Assembly (NCBI GenBank): GCA_023245355.1
Contig: JAHFKN010000005.1
Location: 33,290 to 97,289, forward strand
Direction: 5' to 3'
DNA: 64,000 nt
Origin: Candidatus Gottesmanbacteria bacterium
GTDB taxonomy: Bacteria; Patescibacteriota; Microgenomatia; UBA10105; UBA927
The notes under the pieces were generated by a model that was given only the letters and a program-made list of their open reading frames with translations, was not told the DNA's origin and made no database searches. Below, piece by piece: positions 28,284 to 34,924 of the stretch (its first letter is position 1; each line of letters starts with the position of its first letter). A program made the position numbers and the translations under genes.

Positions 28284-29447
28284 TCACTCTTCTATCAGCG
28301 GGAGCCCTTCTTCTACACTCGCCTCTGGTTCCTGCACTTTGAGTTCCGGCAGTGTTTTGCCGACTACTCCCTGCAGATCCCCGTGCATCCCCTGCGTGTG
28401 ATCGATGACTTTGCGTAACTGCTTCTCCTGTCTGGCCCATTTGGTCTGGAACCAGCGTTTCTCCCGCTCCACTTCATCCTGCATACTGCCGAACGCTTCG
28501 ATGATCGCGTTCATGCGGTGGGTAAATTCTATACTCGTGATGTAGCGGTACAATTCCTCTTTTTTCTCGTCTTTCCCGCTCTGGATATCGCGCACGAAAT
28601 TTTCTCGGATGAGTCCGTACCGCAAGGTCATAGCAAGAGGCACGGCAAATTTCTGCATACAAATCCAGATGCCGTTATCGTGCATATAGGTCGTGAGTCC
28701 CTTGGGCGGATCGGTGACCACGAGAATGGATAAATGCGCTTTCGCCTGCCGGGCATCTTCCCGCAGTTTCGGAGCCCAGGTGTCGGACCACTTCGCATTT
28801 TTGGATTCCCACAGCATCATGCCGCATTCCCGGCCTTTTTTGTCCACGACGCGCTGCAGGATATCGGCTCCCCGCTGGCCCTTTTTCACTTCCTCGATAA
28901 TATCCATGGGAAATTCGTGCTTGAGCTCTTCCTCGAGCACCAGCTCCAACGACTCGCCCTGCGCCTGCTGAGAGCCTTGCTGCAGTTTTGTTTTGAGTTC
29001 TTCGATCTGCTTGAGCGCGACAGAATAATTCTGATCCTTTTCGCGGTCTTTGAGTTCGTGTTCTTCCTGCACTTTTTTCCGGGCTTCATCGCGGATTTTG
29101 GCTTCTTCGTCTGCCAGTTTCTTTTTCATTTCCAGTTCGCGCTCTTCGTCTTTACGGCGGAGTTTCCGCAGGTCTTCGCTCAGATCCTCGAGTTGCTTAA
29201 GCAACCGTTTGTTGCGTTCCTTTTCTTCTCCCGCATCTGCTTCCAGCGCTTTCATGCGCTCTTTGGCGTCTGCTGCTAATTTTTCCGTCACGGTTTTTAC
29301 CGTCTCTTCCCGCATGCGGACAAGCGCTTCTTCATGGCGCTTCTTTTCTGCTGCGAGAATTTCTTCGCCCACCTGATGGCGGAACGCTTCCGTCGGCTCG
29401 AAGTACTGGCCGCATTTAGGACACTTGATGGATGCCTGATCACTCAT
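28284..29447 (-). CDS. DUF2130-like coiled-coil protein with N-terminal C4 zinc ribbon
   Basis: Start MSDQASIKCPKCGQ; long Lys/Glu-rich coiled coil; globular C-terminal domain; resembles DUF2130 family proteins. Confidence 0.55.
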   Translation of the reverse strand: MSDQASIKCPKCGQYFEPTEAFRHQVGEEILAAEKKRHEEALVRMREETVKTVTEKLAADAKERMKALEADAGEEKERNKRLLKQLEDLSEDLRKLRRKDEERELEMKKKLADEEAKIRDEARKKVQEEHELKDREKDQNYSVALKQIEELKTKLQQGSQQAQGESLELVLEEELKHEFPMDIIEEVKKGQRGADILQRVVDKKGRECGMMLWESKNAKWSDTWAPKLREDARQAKAHLSILVVTDPPKGLTTYMHDNGIWICMQKFAVPLAMTLRYGLIRENFVRDIQSGKDEKKEELYRYITSIEFTHRMNAIIEAFGSMQDEVEREKRWFQTKWARQEKQLRKVIDHTQGMHGDLQGVVGKTLPELKVQEPEASVEEGLPLIEE

Positions 29448-29659
29448 ATGAAAAGTGTCTGTACTGTACAGAGTTACACGCGGGAGTGCAAGTTTACAAA
29501 ACAAAAACATTTAAACCGATACAGAGCACGTCTAACCTATTAAATGTGAGTTCGCTAATACTATATTTTAACAAGATAATTGAGGCAACATTTCTACCTA
29601 AGTAAAAATTACTTTTGTATCTGGACCTTTTACTAATTTTCTTGTATACTTAGTGCCGA

Positions 29660-30535
29660 ATGAAAAAACAAAAAACTGCATCAAGAAAAAAACATCGCAA
29701 TAATATAAAAGTTGCTTTATTTGCAAACCCTCCTATTAATTCAATTATAGCAGGAGACTGTGAAGCTGTACTCAAACAATTTCCTGAAAATTCAATCGAT
29801 TTGATAATCACGTCCCCACCATATTCAGACAAACGCAAAAACACATATGGCGGAATCCACCCAGATAAATATGTTGATTGGTTTTTACCTAAGTCGGAAC
29901 AGTTTTATAGAGTATTAAAGCCGAATGGCACATTTATCTTAAACATTAAAAATGGCGCTTCTGACGGAGAAAAACATATATATATACTAAATCTGATTTT
30001 ACGGCTTAGACAGCAAGGTTGGATTTGGACAGAAGAATTTATTTGGCACAAAAAAAATTCTTTTCCAGGAAAGTGGCCAAACAGATTCAGAGACGCGTGG
30101 GAACCCTGCTTTCAATTTAATAAACAAAAACAATTCAAAATGTTTCAAAATAATGTTATGGAACCCATTGGAGATTGGTCAAAATCAAGATTTAAATATC
30201 TTACTTTAGAAGATAAAAGGAGAACGGAATCAACAGTTAAAAGTGGATTTGGAAGAAATGTATCTAATTGGGTATCTCGCAAAATGGTATATCCTACAAA
30301 TGTTCTCCATTTAGCCACTGAAAGTGCAAATAAAGATCATAGCGCAGTATTTCCAATTTCACTACCTACATGGTTCATTAAATTATTTACTCAAAAAGGG
30401 GATGTAGTGCTCGATCCATTCGTAGGGTCAGGAACATCTGCTCTCGCTGCCAAAAAATTAGAAAGAAATTATATTGGGATTGACATACTTAACAGGTATT
30501 GCTTAGTGGCAAAAAGAAGGCTATTAGCGAAGTAA
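29660..30535 (+). CDS. DNA methyltransferase, beta-class (N4-cytosine or N6-adenine; SPPY motif suggests m4C)
   Basis: 291 aa; catalytic motif IV SPPY (…DLIITSPPYSD…) precedes the AdoMet motif I FVGSGTS near the C-terminus (IV→I order = beta class, ParB-like methylase family); AT-rich gene. Confidence 0.8.
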   Translation: MKKQKTASRKKHRNNIKVALFANPPINSIIAGDCEAVLKQFPENSIDLIITSPPYSDKRKNTYGGIHPDKYVDWFLPKSEQFYRVLKPNGTFILNIKNGASDGEKHIYILNLILRLRQQGWIWTEEFIWHKKNSFPGKWPNRFRDAWEPCFQFNKQKQFKMFQNNVMEPIGDWSKSRFKYLTLEDKRRTESTVKSGFGRNVSNWVSRKMVYPTNVLHLATESANKDHSAVFPISLPTWFIKLFTQKGDVVLDPFVGSGTSALAAKKLERNYIGIDILNRYCLVAKRRLLAK

Positions 30536-30543
30536 TTTTGCGC

Positions 30544-31521
30544 CTAAACTGTTTTCTCTAGTACTTCGTACGTATCAGTGCTAATACCAAATTGAGGACT
30601 GTTCATAACGGTTTCGTTTGGATTTTGGAATACATCAATATCGACAGGAATACCATTCTTCATATAGACATAATATATATAGTATCGACCTTTTAGCCTA
30701 CATGCAGCATTATACTCATTTCTACTAAAATAAAATTTAACTCTGGGTGAAATACCAGACTTAACTTCAATAAACCTATTAAAAATAGAACTATCTTTAT
30801 CCTCGAAGGATGCAATATCATACCCCGCAGCTACGTTACGACTTGCGACATAATCTACTCTTTTCGCTTGATCAAAAGCAGAATTCAGTTCTAAACGTCT
30901 AATTTCACTTTTAATAACATATTTTTCCGCAAGCACAGCTTGTCTAATCTTTTCAGCTTCAGCTCTCAAAAAATCTTCTGGCGAAATTAATCTTATTGAA
31001 TCCATTATAATCGGGTCAAATAAAGTACTGTACTGAGTAGCAATTAAAAATTGTGACACATTACTAACTAAAACACCCAATTGGATCAGAACATTAAATA
31101 ATATCTGATCAGCAATTGAGGTTGATTCTGCTTTACTTAGAAATATCTCTCCATGACTTCCTATTTTAAAGTGTGAAAAAATATCTTTTATACCGCTTTG
31201 TATACCAGGTATCTCAAATAAACGATTGCTAATTAATTTTTTTTGAGCAGCATTAGGCTCTAGAATATAATGGCTTTCTTTTTTCAATGCTAAATTTAAA
31301 TATATATGGCCTAAATCAGTTATTTGGAGTGAATGGTCAGTAACGCAAATAAATCCCAGTGTAAGACAAAAATTTTTAGCAAGGGCAAAAGAATCTCTAA
31401 CTGGAATAACATATTGTGTCTTATAGTACTCAGCAACATCTAGCTCGAGCGATCTCTGGCCTATTTCAAGTGCCTTAGATGATGCCAAAAAACGATTTAT
31501 AGTTTGGATATCAGTAATCAT
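30544..31521 (-). CDS. DUF3883 (NOV_C, restriction-endonuclease-like) domain protein
   Basis: 325 aa; C-terminal GYDIASFED…FIEVKSGISPRVKFYFSRNEYNAA…YYIYYV matches the DUF3883 core (GYDI…IEVK…NE); 4-bp overlap (ATGA) with the upstream helicase gene. Confidence 0.65.
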   Translation of the reverse strand: MITDIQTINRFLASSKALEIGQRSLELDVAEYYKTQYVIPVRDSFALAKNFCLTLGFICVTDHSLQITDLGHIYLNLALKKESHYILEPNAAQKKLISNRLFEIPGIQSGIKDIFSHFKIGSHGEIFLSKAESTSIADQILFNVLIQLGVLVSNVSQFLIATQYSTLFDPIIMDSIRLISPEDFLRAEAEKIRQAVLAEKYVIKSEIRRLELNSAFDQAKRVDYVASRNVAAGYDIASFEDKDSSIFNRFIEVKSGISPRVKFYFSRNEYNAACRLKGRYYIYYVYMKNGIPVDIDVFQNPNETVMNSPQFGISTDTYEVLEKTV

Positions 31522-33425
31522 ATGTTGATATCTTTAATAGTTTGTTCAAAATCCCTAGAAAATTCGACTTTATCATCACTCACCTCATCTAATTTAGTTT
31601 CTAAATTCAAAACTTTAAAATCATCGTTCAATATTTTAGCCATTCTCTGACACTTTTCGATCAACCGTCTATTGACGGTTTCATCAATGGTACTCTCCGT
31701 CTGCAATAAATAATAATTTGTCTTTGTGGAAGAATTAAGTCCAACGCGATGAATCCTGTCAAGTGACTGCATGTACTGTCCTGCATTAAATGTTCTATCT
31801 AAATATATTGCATCATGACATACATCGTGAAGTGATATTGATTCACCGCAAGCACCAGGGTTAGCAATTAATACTCTACAATTCGGATCGGATTTAAATT
31901 TCTTTATTCTAATCTCTCTATTGTCATTTTTATCTAACTGATCATTAATGGGTATATCACCATATATTACCTGAGGATCATAGTCCTTAAACATACTCCT
32001 TAACGTTTTAATATTATTTATCCAGACGGACCAAATAACAACTTTCTTAGATTTACTTATATTTAAAATTTGGCGTGCCAGCTTATCACATTCCTTTAGT
32101 TTAGGTGGAATTTCGTATTTACTATAATTTTTTATTCCTTCAATCACTGAGGGCTCAAGATATTTAGACATCTTGTCTGCTTTAATTCCGGAAATGTTAA
32201 ATTCTATAGATTTTTCATAAAGTAATGATGGGTTTGATGCGGCTTGCATAAGTCTAATCATTATCGATCTTCTTAATTCTACTAATATTGATCTGTCTTT
32301 CTTAGCTATGTTAAATTCCTCAATGCTAGCTCGTTTTATGGACGCGTATATTCTTTGTTGAAGAGTGCTTGATTTCACAATTACCTGATTAAATATTGGA
32401 TTTGGTAAATGTAGTTGGCTTTTTTTAACGCGCCGATAAAAGGGCATCAATTTTTTTCTAATAAGTTCTTCTGCATCTTTTCTCTTGGTTATATTTACAA
32501 ATTGGCTCCTAGTTCCGGCTATTGTTCTGTCAAGAAAATAAAATTGGCTCCATAAATCAAGGAGCGAATTTGGAAGGGGCGTACCTGTAAGTATTATTCT
32601 TCTCTCAGCGAATAAACCTAGCTGACAAACTGCACTCGACCAAATTCCGCCGGCAAACCTTTTTATATTATGAGATTCATCTAAAACCAATAAAAATTTA
32701 CCAGAACGAAGAAGCGCTGATATTTCAGCTACATCCGCTGCCGCAGTTTGATATGTAGTAATAAATATATTATATTTTTCGGGACGATTATATAATCTAA
32801 TTCGACTTGATTTAGGTCCAGTTATTCTGATTATTAGAGGTTTTGTGTTAAAGCATTTTTCATATTCTTCTGTCCAAGCTATATAAGCAGCACTAGGAGC
32901 GATTATAAATAATTTATCAATCTTATCATCACTCTCCAGGAGGGAATATGCTGCGTATAACATCGTAGTTTTTCCACTTCCCGGAACAGAGAAGTTTGCT
33001 GCGTAGGGCACCTTAACCATTAACGACACTGGCTCCTCTTGATACTCTTTTAGAGTTCTAATAAACTTAGTTGCTTTTAAATCCGATCTAGGCGAGTGCT
33101 TAATATTTAGCAAATCACTAGCATTTTTTATAATTTGCATCCTATATTTTTGATCAGAAGATGCTTTATTTATTAATGTTATTGCGTCATCATTAGCCAC
33201 AAATTTTAACTTTTCGCTAGCGATAAGATCTATAACTTGCCTAACAATTTCATAAAATTCCTGAGAGGAATAGTTTTTAGTGCTTAAACTATATCGATGT
33301 CGATCGTGTGAAGAAAAATCCAATGTCGTCTCGAGTGTTATGGGTAATAACGAATCATCTAGAGAAGATGGTATCTTTAGGGTAAGATCATTTAAACTTG
33401 GACTATAGCAGATTTCTACCCTCAT
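31518..33425 (-). CDS. SNF2/SWI2-family DEAD-like helicase/ATPase
   Basis: 635 aa; Walker A VPGSGKTTM, DEXH box LVLDESHNIK, motif III ILTGTPLPN, motif VI QSLDRIHRVG; unique ~130-aa N-terminal region. Confidence 0.85.
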   Translation of the reverse strand: MRVEICYSPSLNDLTLKIPSSLDDSLLPITLETTLDFSSHDRHRYSLSTKNYSSQEFYEIVRQVIDLIASEKLKFVANDDAITLINKASSDQKYRMQIIKNASDLLNIKHSPRSDLKATKFIRTLKEYQEEPVSLMVKVPYAANFSVPGSGKTTMLYAAYSLLESDDKIDKLFIIAPSAAYIAWTEEYEKCFNTKPLIIRITGPKSSRIRLYNRPEKYNIFITTYQTAAADVAEISALLRSGKFLLVLDESHNIKRFAGGIWSSAVCQLGLFAERRIILTGTPLPNSLLDLWSQFYFLDRTIAGTRSQFVNITKRKDAEELIRKKLMPFYRRVKKSQLHLPNPIFNQVIVKSSTLQQRIYASIKRASIEEFNIAKKDRSILVELRRSIMIRLMQAASNPSLLYEKSIEFNISGIKADKMSKYLEPSVIEGIKNYSKYEIPPKLKECDKLARQILNISKSKKVVIWSVWINNIKTLRSMFKDYDPQVIYGDIPINDQLDKNDNREIRIKKFKSDPNCRVLIANPGACGESISLHDVCHDAIYLDRTFNAGQYMQSLDRIHRVGLNSSTKTNYYLLQTESTIDETVNRRLIEKCQRMAKILNDDFKVLNLETKLDEVSDDKVEFSRDFEQTIKDINI

Positions 33426-33439
33426 TTAGTGAATTCTAT

Positions 33440-34570
33440 TTATTTTTTCTTTGTAAGTACAATTATTATTGAGGAAATTTTCTTCAAATATTTTTTCACC
33501 TCAGGTGTTATGTCATAATCAGCGTCTTGATACTTATTAAATTGCTCATAAATAGAAACAATTATTTCCAGTGGCTTATTTTCATCTTTCTTAATTTTTA
33601 CCCTTTCGTTTGCTTCATCTATTTTATCTTTAAAAGCCTCCTCAGAAATTTTACCTTTCTTTAATTGCTCAGTAGCATGAGAAGCTAATTTAGTTTTCCA
33701 ACCATACTTTCCAAATTCCCTAACATCTCTATAAGTGCACCCTGATTTTATATACGCAAATTGCATCTCAAGTAACTGCTTTATCTCAACAGCGTTAGAT
33801 CCTTCACTCCTGAACTTCCTTTGATTTTTTTCCACCTCCGTAATTACTTCGGTAATTTTCTCATCTTCTATTCGTTTATAGTCGATTTTTCCCCAGGAAA
33901 ATTTTGAGTAGGCCTCCAAATATTTCAACTGTGCCAAATGCTCCGAAATGTACTTCTCATCTCGCAAAAGAAGAGCCGCTAGCTCCTTTTGAGTCATTCC
34001 CTTATTTAATCCCTCTTGTATTTTAATTAATTCATTTACCGCACCAAATCCTATCTTAAAATCCTTTGCGTATTGTAATCGTGCTTCAATCTTATAAATT
34101 TCAGTTTCATTAATGCTTCGTGGTAATATCACAGTTTCTAAATAAGAATACTTATCATCTCCAGTTTCTTCATAAAGCATGGTAAGAACTGCCATACGCC
34201 TATTTGCATTTATAACTACTCCAGCCGCCGTTATGACACCTGGGTCAATTTGACCTCGTTTTTTTAAATCTTCTTTTAACACCTTGGTATCATGAGGAGA
34301 TTTTGTAAGTAATATGTTTCTAACCTCACTTGAATCATCAGGATTACGTGTATTTAACTTTCGACGACGAGACGCTTCTAACATTTCAAGATCAGCCGCG
34401 AAACGACCATTTTCGACATTAAATATTAACAGCTTAATGGGAAGACGATAAACTGGGAGATCTTGAATTTGACCTTCGATTTCTATTCTTTGAATTCTGT
34501 CTCTTACACAAGTGGGGTTACTTTTTATATAGGCTTCAATTCGCTGTTCATAAGTACTATTTATCGTCAT
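33440..34570 (-). CDS. ParB/Srx-fold (DGQQR/DGQHR-like) N-terminal domain protein with long Lys/Glu-rich helical C-terminus
   Basis: 376 aa; LPIKLLIFNVENGRF (ParB box-like N-x-x-N-x-R) and GVVINANRRMAVLTML (resembles GERR / DGQQRLTTL arginine finger block); family assignment by motif only. Confidence 0.5.
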   Translation of the reverse strand: MTINSTYEQRIEAYIKSNPTCVRDRIQRIEIEGQIQDLPVYRLPIKLLIFNVENGRFAADLEMLEASRRRKLNTRNPDDSSEVRNILLTKSPHDTKVLKEDLKKRGQIDPGVITAAGVVINANRRMAVLTMLYEETGDDKYSYLETVILPRSINETEIYKIEARLQYAKDFKIGFGAVNELIKIQEGLNKGMTQKELAALLLRDEKYISEHLAQLKYLEAYSKFSWGKIDYKRIEDEKITEVITEVEKNQRKFRSEGSNAVEIKQLLEMQFAYIKSGCTYRDVREFGKYGWKTKLASHATEQLKKGKISEEAFKDKIDEANERVKIKKDENKPLEIIVSIYEQFNKYQDADYDITPEVKKYLKKISSIIIVLTKKK

Positions 34571-34636
34571 ATTATTAATATATAGAACTAACTATTAATA
34601 TAACTATGTAATTATACACCCTCTAAACGGCTTTCG

Positions 34637-34924
34637 CTATGAGCCTGGTGGCAGAAACGTCGCCCAGACAATAAATCCTATAACCAAGAGAATGAATGCC
34701 CCTATCATCACCACGAGAACACGAATGAGTATTTTTACCAGTAACGGATCGAGCACCTCGTTATAATATTTGTCTGCTTTCCTGTATTCATGTGAGAGCG
34801 GCCGGAAAATAAGATAAAGCGGTACACCGATGTACACAATCACATCTCTCACAAACGCATTCCATCGGTACGGCACGATCGTGAGGGAAATCCGGACCTC
34901 TGTGGGAAACCGTATTTTTGCCAT
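34637..34924 (-). CDS. Small membrane protein (hypothetical)
   Basis: 95 aa, two hydrophobic helices; normal GC content (outside the AT-rich island). Confidence 0.4.
   Translation of the reverse strand: MAKIRFPTEVRISLTIVPYRWNAFVRDVIVYIGVPLYLIFRPLSHEYRKADKYYNEVLDPLLVKILIRVLVVMIGAFILLVIGFIVWATFLPPGS

Follow-up and report, generated by a model that had tools for sequence, protein, structure and literature searches.

The 64-kb stretch of Candidatus Gottesmanbacteria bacterium DNA analysed here (contig JAHFKN010000005.1 of assembly GCA_023245355.1, positions 33,290 to 97,289; hereafter the window) carries an AT-rich island of ~5.1 kb at window positions 29511-34636. This island is probably a horizontally acquired, self-contained, and methylation-protected defence module of the AbiR lineage that acts like an ATP-dependent restriction-modification (R-M) system. 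It encodes a DNA methylase and, converging on it, an operon for a ParB-like protein, an SNF2-family ATPase, and a NOV_C (DUF3883) nuclease. Sequence comparison identified the ParB-like and SNF2 proteins as clear homologues of proteins from a Lactococcus lactis locus matching AbiR. The features of the island are as follows (ORF, open reading frame).

29511..34636, no strand: AT-rich island, 33.3% versus 50.5% GC, between the DUF2130 gene and a 95-aa ORF and bcp
29660..30535, plus strand: beta-class DNA methyltransferase, 291 aa (Pfam N6_N4_Mtase)
30544..31521, minus strand: NOV_C/DUF3883 nuclease, 325 aa (Pfam NOV_C)
31518..33425, minus strand: SNF2-family ATPase/translocase, 635 aa (Pfam SNF2-rel_dom, ResIII, and Helicase_C)
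33440..34570, minus strand: predicted ParB/Srx-fold protein of the AbiRb family, 376 aa, opening the operon (fold model and homologue alignment)
34571..34636, minus strand: AT-rich leader of 66 nt upstream of the operon, with one weak promoter-like match (34598-34571)

Composition and proteins of the island

GC content in 500-bp windows fell from 0.50-0.53 to 0.31-0.37 over ~29.3-34.7 kb and then recovered, bearing out the sharp AT-rich break between 29.5 and 34.6 kb that a sequence-only reading of this DNA had reported. The island had a GC content of 0.333 compared to 0.505 for the remainder of the window and lay ~14 standard deviations (sd) below 195 other 5.1-kb windows (mean 0.506, sd 0.012, minimum 0.476), making it the single low-GC stretch of this kind in the 64 kb. 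Horizontal acquisition, which that reading had also proposed, is supported because the composition is aberrant and the genes are patchily spread in bacteria and archaea. Only four supported ORFs of at least 60 aa were present, at the coordinates given earlier. The three minus strand genes form a tight operon, with a gap of 14 nt between the ParB-like and SNF2 genes and a 4-nt overlap (ATGA) shared by the SNF2 stop and the NOV_C start. The methylase gene is convergent on this operon, with 8 nt separating its stop codon from that of NOV_C. The reported ATGA overlap and methylase motifs were likewise verified in the sequence, and all four domain assignments held, with Pfam backing those of the methylase, NOV_C, and SNF2 proteins and the ParB/Srx call proving right though no hidden Markov model (HMM) supports it.

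The methylase matched Pfam N6_N4_Mtase (1.2e-41) and PADLOC MTase_II (8e-51), and its motif IV SPPY (aa 52-55) precedes motif I FVGSGTS (near aa 264), the beta-class order. Its best solved relative was the N4-cytosine enzyme M.PvuII (E 1.7e-30, full length), followed by other N4-cytosine enzymes, with adenine enzymes giving weaker matches; for this reason, N4-methylcytosine (m4C) is probably its product.

The nuclease matched Pfam NOV_C (1.7e-13, aa 198-288), a domain for which nuclease activity was shown experimentally in YenY4I and HmaA. Residues E199, E206, R209, G233, D235, S238, E252, K254, and E269 were invariant in 29 homologues, and the predicted PD-(D/E)xK site D235...E252-x-K254 is intact. 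An AlphaFold model (pLDDT, the predicted local distance difference test, 87.5) contained two N-terminal winged-helix units at about aa 6-67 and 91-160, a long helix, and the C-terminal alpha/beta NOV_C core. Among close homologues, the nuclease varied most in its second winged-helix unit (27-35% vs. 48-53% identity).

The best Pfam match of the SNF2 protein was SNF2-rel_dom (9.8e-24), with further matches to ResIII and Helicase_C, and motifs I, II, III, and VI were intact in the translation (GSGKT, DESH, LTGTP, and QSLDRIHRVG). Its solved relatives were generic SNF2 remodellers. No Pfam domain was detected in the N-terminal ~147 aa and no PLDc match anywhere in the protein; a faint PADLOC PbeA match (3.5e-8) covered aa 94-271.

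By sequence, the 376-aa ParB-like protein had no significant match in Pfam, NCBIfam, PADLOC, or PDB, and structure comparison alone placed it. Its model comprised a ParB/Spo0J/KorB-like N-domain, a helix-turn-helix (HTH), and long C-terminal helices, so that a predicted N-domain with a conserved arginine loop is followed by an HTH, as in the ParB/Srx fold. Invariant positions in the homologue alignment included N51..N54-G55-R56, G106-Q107..G111, and N123-R124-R125-M-A, within the strings YRLP..L.FN..NGRF and GQ..PG.IT..G.VIN(A/G)NRRMA; E162 and Q166 were also invariant in the family. The sole recurrent sub-threshold Pfam families were ddrB-ParB (7/31 members), HTH_ParB, and KorB, and some homologues are labelled "ParB N-terminal domain-containing protein" in RefSeq. 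No ParA gene was present in the island. In an hhalign comparison of the family profile with Bacillus subtilis Spo0J, the GxxRR loop and the HTH were aligned in register; the E-value of 0.22 was not significant, and the comparison was given no weight.

A word-indexed search found 33 relatives of the ParB-like protein. An exhaustive profile search returned 1,911 cluster representatives at E<=1e-3 (1,522 at <=1e-10), this count of ~1,900 referring to clusters at 50% identity, and Pfam covered none of the 1,911. In one 525-aa member (P0102), the ParB-like protein is preceded by a fused Mrr_N domain (Pfam 3e-24), a further link of this family to restriction enzymes. A 38%-identical homologue without SNF2 or NOV_C in a Verrucomicrobiae metagenome-assembled genome (MAG; L006:8001-10404, identical to L017) pairs with a convergent 397-aa PDDEXK_4 protein beside a gene of the uracil-DNA glycosylase (UDG) family, which may be a minimal ParB-like plus nuclease variant. 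Among phage genomes, distant homologues occurred in just three tiny records, so that these are not a set of phage genes.

Conservation of the block and homology to AbiR

With each GTDB species represented by one genome, a scan revealed 58 loci. Bacterial loci came from Terriglobia, Verrucomicrobiota, Bacteroidota, Elusimicrobiota, Chloroflexota, Ignavibacteria, candidate phyla radiation (CPR) groups, and Proteobacteria, and archaeal loci from Thermoplasmata, methanogens, Nitrosopumilales, Micrarchaeota, and Nanoarchaeota. The expectation that the genes would recur together elsewhere was confirmed on the 41 GTDB-representative loci with sufficient downstream flank, using our own ORF calls and HMMs: the order ParB-like, SNF2, NOV_C was kept in 39 (32 intact and seven fragmented) and missing from two. 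All 32 intact triads were co-directional, with junctions of -47 to +54 nt. The gene after NOV_C encoded an N6_N4_Mtase in 16/31 loci and a D12 class methylase in 11/31, and a methylase adjoined 36 of the 39 triads. Such adjacency to methylases of various families is the classic signature of a modification/restriction pair. Pairwise identities of the ParB-like, SNF2, and NOV_C proteins were correlated (Spearman 0.66-0.75), compared to 0.21-0.24 for the methylase, indicating at the sequence level that the three operon proteins co-evolve and that the methylase is exchanged.

The same arrangement was reached from both ends of the block. Homologues with a 37-62% identical ParB-like protein were encoded in the order ParB-like, SNF2 (~635 aa), NOV_C (~330 aa), and methylase, the latter being N6_N4 in one block and D12 class in two others. 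A search started from distant stand-alone NOV_C proteins found SNF2 upstream, preceded by unannotated proteins that matched the ParB-like profile at E 2e-19 to 4e-74; the methylase in this group was C5 in one locus (L011, upstream), N6_N4 in one, and absent from one. The block was more AT-rich than its own flanks in 12/14 hosts and the closest block (L009) was located in a genome of 34% GC, consistent with repeated transfer and with a low-GC source. Neighbourhoods in relatives included CBASS, AbiE, toxin-antitoxin pairs, NERD-UvrD, Cas1, conjugative elements, and plasmids, and the genes upstream of the ParB-like gene were heterogeneous over 26 loci.

Individual loci departed from this layout. 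Two tandem ParB-like paralogues precede SNF2 and NOV_C in Nitrosopumilus, Cenarchaeum, and Nitrosopelagicus (L039, L042, L045, and L049), and three of these thaumarchaeal loci have ~700-aa neighbour genes that simple methylase HMMs did not recognise. Decay was seen in several loci (L019, L038, L057, L065-L067, L069, and L073), including split NOV_C, a 309-aa SNF2 insertion, an IS481 between SNF2 and DUF3883, and multiple fragments; such decay is the usual fate of costly defence genes, although some of it may reflect MAG assembly errors. Locus L062 and loci L048/L053/L054/L058 share 61-64% identity in the ParB-like protein, 65-73% in SNF2, and 62-66% in the winged-helix region, and have unrelated methylases, of D12 class and convergent orientation in L062 and N6_N4 in the others.

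On plasmids, the ParB-like protein (HMM E 1e-24 to 1e-45) and SNF2 (1e-99 to 1e-142) formed a constant pair with varying partners. Azospirillum and Mesorhizobium plasmids (L072 and L073) carry a stand-alone NOV_C. In these two loci a 280-aa "hypothetical protein" (L072:5048-5890 and L073:5051-5896) overlaps the start of the ParB-like gene and matches a PADLOC Type II restriction endonuclease (REase) model at 1.4e-18 with no Pfam match, giving two nucleases per locus, and no obvious adjacent methylase is listed in the annotated table. In Lactiplantibacillus (L.) plantarum and Exiguobacterium, a PLD domain is fused N-terminally to a ~860-aa SNF2, and genes for a MutH/Sau3AI-like REase, Dcm, and Vsr lie close by. 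Enterococcus, Lactococcus, and L. plantarum plasmids have a complete Type III Mod-Res immediately upstream of the ParB-like and SNF2 genes. In L074 (1049-7170), L075 (1008-9714), and L076 the genes overlap from the Type III Mod-Res into this pair and a 201-aa protein with no family match comes after SNF2, which looks like a five-gene operon uniting a classical Type III system with an AbiR-like core.

The link to AbiR came from the plasmid-borne homologues. According to a 2026 review of Abi systems in lactococci, AbiR of pKR223 comprises the sigma70-like AbiRa (matched to an 820-aa model), the ParB-like AbiRb, and AbiRc with an N-terminal SauUSI-nuclease-like domain and a C-terminal SNF2 ATPase. 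AbiR adjoins the LlaKR2I R-M system, depends on the LlaKR2I methylase, and is toxic without it; it impedes phage DNA replication and gives phage resistance by a mechanism that the review calls "unclear". With the ParB-like protein of L. plantarum as query, a homologue search retrieved many 398-aa L. lactis proteins, among them AAF75618.1/Q9KJ10 (398 aa, "unknown [L. lactis subsp. lactis bv. diacetylactis]"). A copy 99% identical to AAF75618.1 lies beside type IV secretion genes on an L. lactis contig (L079) in the order 820-aa, 398-aa, and 850-aa PLD plus SNF2 proteins, followed by an opposite-strand C5 methylase and a 496-aa MutH-like REase (PADLOC REase_II 5e-275). This layout fits published AbiR and LlaKR2I point by point, from which we infer its identity with AbiR. 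PLDc_2 is present in the SNF2-fused proteins of both L. lactis and L. plantarum, and the N-terminal ~250 aa of three such PLD-SNF2 proteins (L077:7094-9667, L078:5512-8100, and L079:10199-12751) matched PADLOC PbeA at E 1e-64 to 1e-67, so that AbiRc-type proteins have a nuclease head in common with the Pbe system. From PADLOC v2, only generic PbeA/PLD/helicase and REase models matched the AbiR-type locus.

The window ParB-like protein matched AAF75618.1 by BLASTP at E 7e-20 (26% over 292 aa), and its family profile aligned with AAF75618.1 over 343 columns in hhalign (probability 99.5, E 3e-22). Between the window SNF2 protein and the 850-aa L079 protein, identity was 29% over 591 aa (E 2e-57), in an alignment that starts upstream of motif I. 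Gene order is also the same in AbiR and the window, SNF2 being directly downstream of the ParB-like gene. The differences are considerable: identity is just 26-29%; the window island lacks a gene for AbiRa, the ~820-aa sigma70-like first component of AbiR; the AbiR nuclease is a PLD/SauUSI-like domain fused N-terminally to SNF2, compared to a separate winged-helix and NOV_C protein in the window; and AbiR borrows the C5 methylase of a neighbouring Sau3AI-like R-M system, compared to a small dedicated, probably m4C-forming, methylase inside the island. The methylase within the island and beside most triads is the genomic correlate of the methylase dependence of AbiR. The window system is accordingly classed, by homology of its ParB-like and SNF2 proteins, as a widespread variant of AbiR, although AbiRa and the PLD fusion are both missing, and not as an unnamed kind of system. 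The sequence-only reading of an undescribed R-M-like module thus stood as regards its R-M-like, horizontally acquired, and conserved character and was not supported as regards novelty, its four-gene combination having a named relative in AbiR.

Proposed mechanism, other named systems, and competing explanations

In the proposed mechanism, the methylase would mark host DNA, probably via m4C. The nuclease may bind DNA by its tandem winged helices and be physically coupled to the SNF2 motor, which would spend ATP to translocate along unmodified DNA, where the PD-(D/E)xK domain would then nick or cut. In its action, the motor-nuclease would resemble a Type III/ISP or HmaA enzyme split into two proteins. 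The ParB-like protein, with a predicted nucleotide-binding N-domain, an HTH, and a helical C-terminus as in ParB and KorB, may be a DNA-binding or loading factor gated by nucleoside triphosphate (NTP) that licenses or recruits the motor-nuclease.

Several points weigh against this reading or parts of it. AbiR is classed as abortive infection and not as restriction. The identification of AAF75618.1 and L079 with AbiRb and AbiR draws on the organism name, the gene sizes, and the fold descriptions of the review. No methylase is adjacent in the relative L012. The ParB-like motif is N-A-N-R-R-M-A and not GERRxRA, the third arginine being absent, and nucleotide binding is a prediction. Lastly, after the methylase family was swapped between L062 and L048/L053/L054/L058, the winged-helix region of the nuclease was no more diverged than the rest, giving no evidence that it reads the methylated site; a role of this region as the specificity domain co-evolving with the methylase is a doubtful one.

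Attribution to DISARM, Dpd, Zorya, the BREX helicases, or Hma was rejected since only the generic helicase core matched and partner genes were absent. NCBIfam scores against the DrmD, DpdE, and ZorD models were 17-44 bits against cut-offs of 500-1500, PADLOC matches of the window SNF2 to named systems covered the helicase core only, and no DrmABC, DpdA-K, ZorABC, Dnd, or BREX partner genes were found in the island or its flanks, in agreement with the sequence-only reading. Hma and Type-1 BREX-related systems have an SNF2 motor, a NOV_C/DUF3883 nuclease, and a methylase in common with the window. NOV_C nicking is essential for defence by HmaA, an SNF2-NOV_C fusion, and Type-1 BREX-related systems swap between REase and PLD nucleases, resembling the nuclease exchange in the window's family. 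However, HmaA is a ~1150-aa fusion with a C-terminal NOV_C compared to separate motor and nuclease proteins in the window (635 and 325 aa), and Hma has the DUF499 ATPase HmaC where the window has a ParB-like protein. The island proteins had no match to DUF499 or DUF1156 (HmaC and HmaB), and DUF1156-type methylases occurred in only a few distant relatives of the window system. PADLOC HmaA models did not match the window SNF2 and NOV_C proteins at E<=0.01; one of them, PDLC00659, matched a related plasmid helicase.

Type III/ISP enzymes share with the window an ATP-dependent SF2 motor, a PD-(D/E)xK nuclease, and a beta-class (PF01555) methylase, but have a Res-type motor with motor and nuclease in one protein, whereas those of the window are split, with an SNF2-type motor and an extra ParB-like subunit. 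The Type III Mod protein carries target recognition, whereas the window methylase is short (291 aa) and PvuII-like with no evident targeting role. Defence systems based on DNA modification repeatedly include ParB/Srx proteins, a group that serves as NTP-binding DNA clamps, nucleases, or regulators. The window protein has in common with the CTP-dependent ParB/KorB/Noc clamps and with DndB/DpdB/SspE-type proteins a ParB/Srx N-domain with a conserved arginine motif, an HTH after it, and a helical C-terminus. In contrast, its motif is (D/N)-(G/A)-N-R-R compared to GERRxRA or DGQHR in ParB/DndB-type proteins, it has no significant sequence match to ParB models, and the island is without ParA, Dnd, Dpd, or Ssp partners.

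The island might instead hold two adjacent systems, with NOV_C and the methylase forming an ordinary Type II(-S)-like R-M system and the ParB-like and SNF2 proteins belonging to a different module, either stand-alone or accessory, that joins various R-M systems and might, for instance, strengthen them or serve as a backup. We consider this unlikely, if the least improbable of the alternatives. It draws on a REBASE-based survey that lists DUF3883 among presumed Type II REase groups, on the resemblance of the nuclease to Type IIS enzymes, in which winged-helix recognition is combined with a cleavage domain, and on the placement of the pair elsewhere, after a complete Type III Mod-Res on Firmicutes plasmids, after a Type II REase-like gene on Azospirillum and Mesorhizobium plasmids, and next to an LlaKR2I-type R-M system in L. 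lactis. It fits poorly with the ATGA overlap of SNF2 and NOV_C in the window, with similarly tight junctions in 32 loci, and with the NOV_C of this clade always being found behind this SNF2. Moreover, loci without NOV_C have a nuclease domain fused to SNF2, which suggests that the motor needs its own nuclease.

Slightly less probable again is a methylase-antidote abortive-infection or addiction module, in which the operon would be a latent toxin against host DNA held in check by the methylase, so that infection would trigger cell killing, or the island would be stabilised, rather than incoming DNA being selectively destroyed. Its toxicity without the methylase, its classification as Abi, and its effect on phage DNA replication make AbiR a precedent, and HmaA protects by an Abi-like nicking strategy; yet any R-M system would be expected to be just as toxic without its methylase, the free interchange of methylase families beside the block fits self/non-self marking, and there is no evident domain for sensing phage proteins. 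A function outside defence, with a ParB-like DNA-binding protein, a remodeller, and a nuclease serving mobile-element partition, maintenance, or repair beside an unrelated orphan methylase, is very improbable. RefSeq does name some homologues "ParB/RepB/Spo0J family partition protein", and plasmids or conjugative elements carry several of the copies, but neither the island nor the conserved block encodes a ParA partner, genes for mobility or replication are absent from the window's island, linkage to an intact nuclease and methylases is conserved over more than 30 chromosomal loci, and AbiR has a phage-resistance phenotype. An ATP-dependent, R-M-like defence module of the AbiR lineage thus remains the preferred reading.

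Island surroundings and implications for the family

The island is flanked by a DUF2130 gene on one side and by a 95-aa ORF and a Bcp/AhpC-TSA peroxiredoxin gene on the other. Searches of its borders for flanking direct repeats, tRNA, integrase, and Rfam elements found none. The DUF2130 ORF (28284-29510, minus strand) is 408 aa long from the first ATG and 387 aa in a public assembly of the same sequence; its start is probably near 29447, leaving a left intergenic gap of ~210 bp. The two calls make the left border and the methylase promoter region uncertain by ~60 nt. The hydrophobic 95-aa ORF (34637-34924, minus strand) between the island and bcp has no family match and is present in public gene calls. 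GC content is intermediate (0.42-0.47) over 34.6-36.2 kb, which includes bcp and a 208-aa ORF with no Pfam match, such that foreign DNA may extend further right. Promoter-like sites over the whole island were no more frequent than in shuffled sequences, which makes the match in the leader a mere candidate promoter.

No description of this four-gene system was found in the literature searched on operons of ParB, SNF2, DUF3883, and methylase genes. New compared to that literature are the size of the ParB-like and SNF2 family and its spread among phyla, its modular nucleases and methylases, and the identity of the pair with the AbiR core. The AbiRb/AbiRc pair would be part of a large family from many bacterial and archaeal phyla in which a nuclease is a constant partner and a methylase a nearly constant one, recasting AbiR as one form of a modular, ATP-dependent R-M family. 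The ParB-like component was missed by Pfam, NCBIfam, and PADLOC v2, and defence censuses therefore probably undercount the family; the AbiR variant of the window is itself not represented in PADLOC v2 or Pfam.

More tentatively, and doubtful at present, the ParB/Srx-fold protein could be a nucleotide-gated, possibly cytidine triphosphate (CTP)-gated, clamp or loader that licenses an SNF2 translocase-nuclease against unmethylated DNA. In that case, a large and unrecognised class of ATP-dependent R-M systems spanning bacteria and archaea, AbiR included, would share the ParB-like and SNF2 proteins as its conserved engine and combine them with interchangeable nucleases (NOV_C, PLD, MutH-like, and Type III Res) and methylases. 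Such a ParB-type nucleotide switch in immunity, if true, would be of interest to the chromosome-segregation field.

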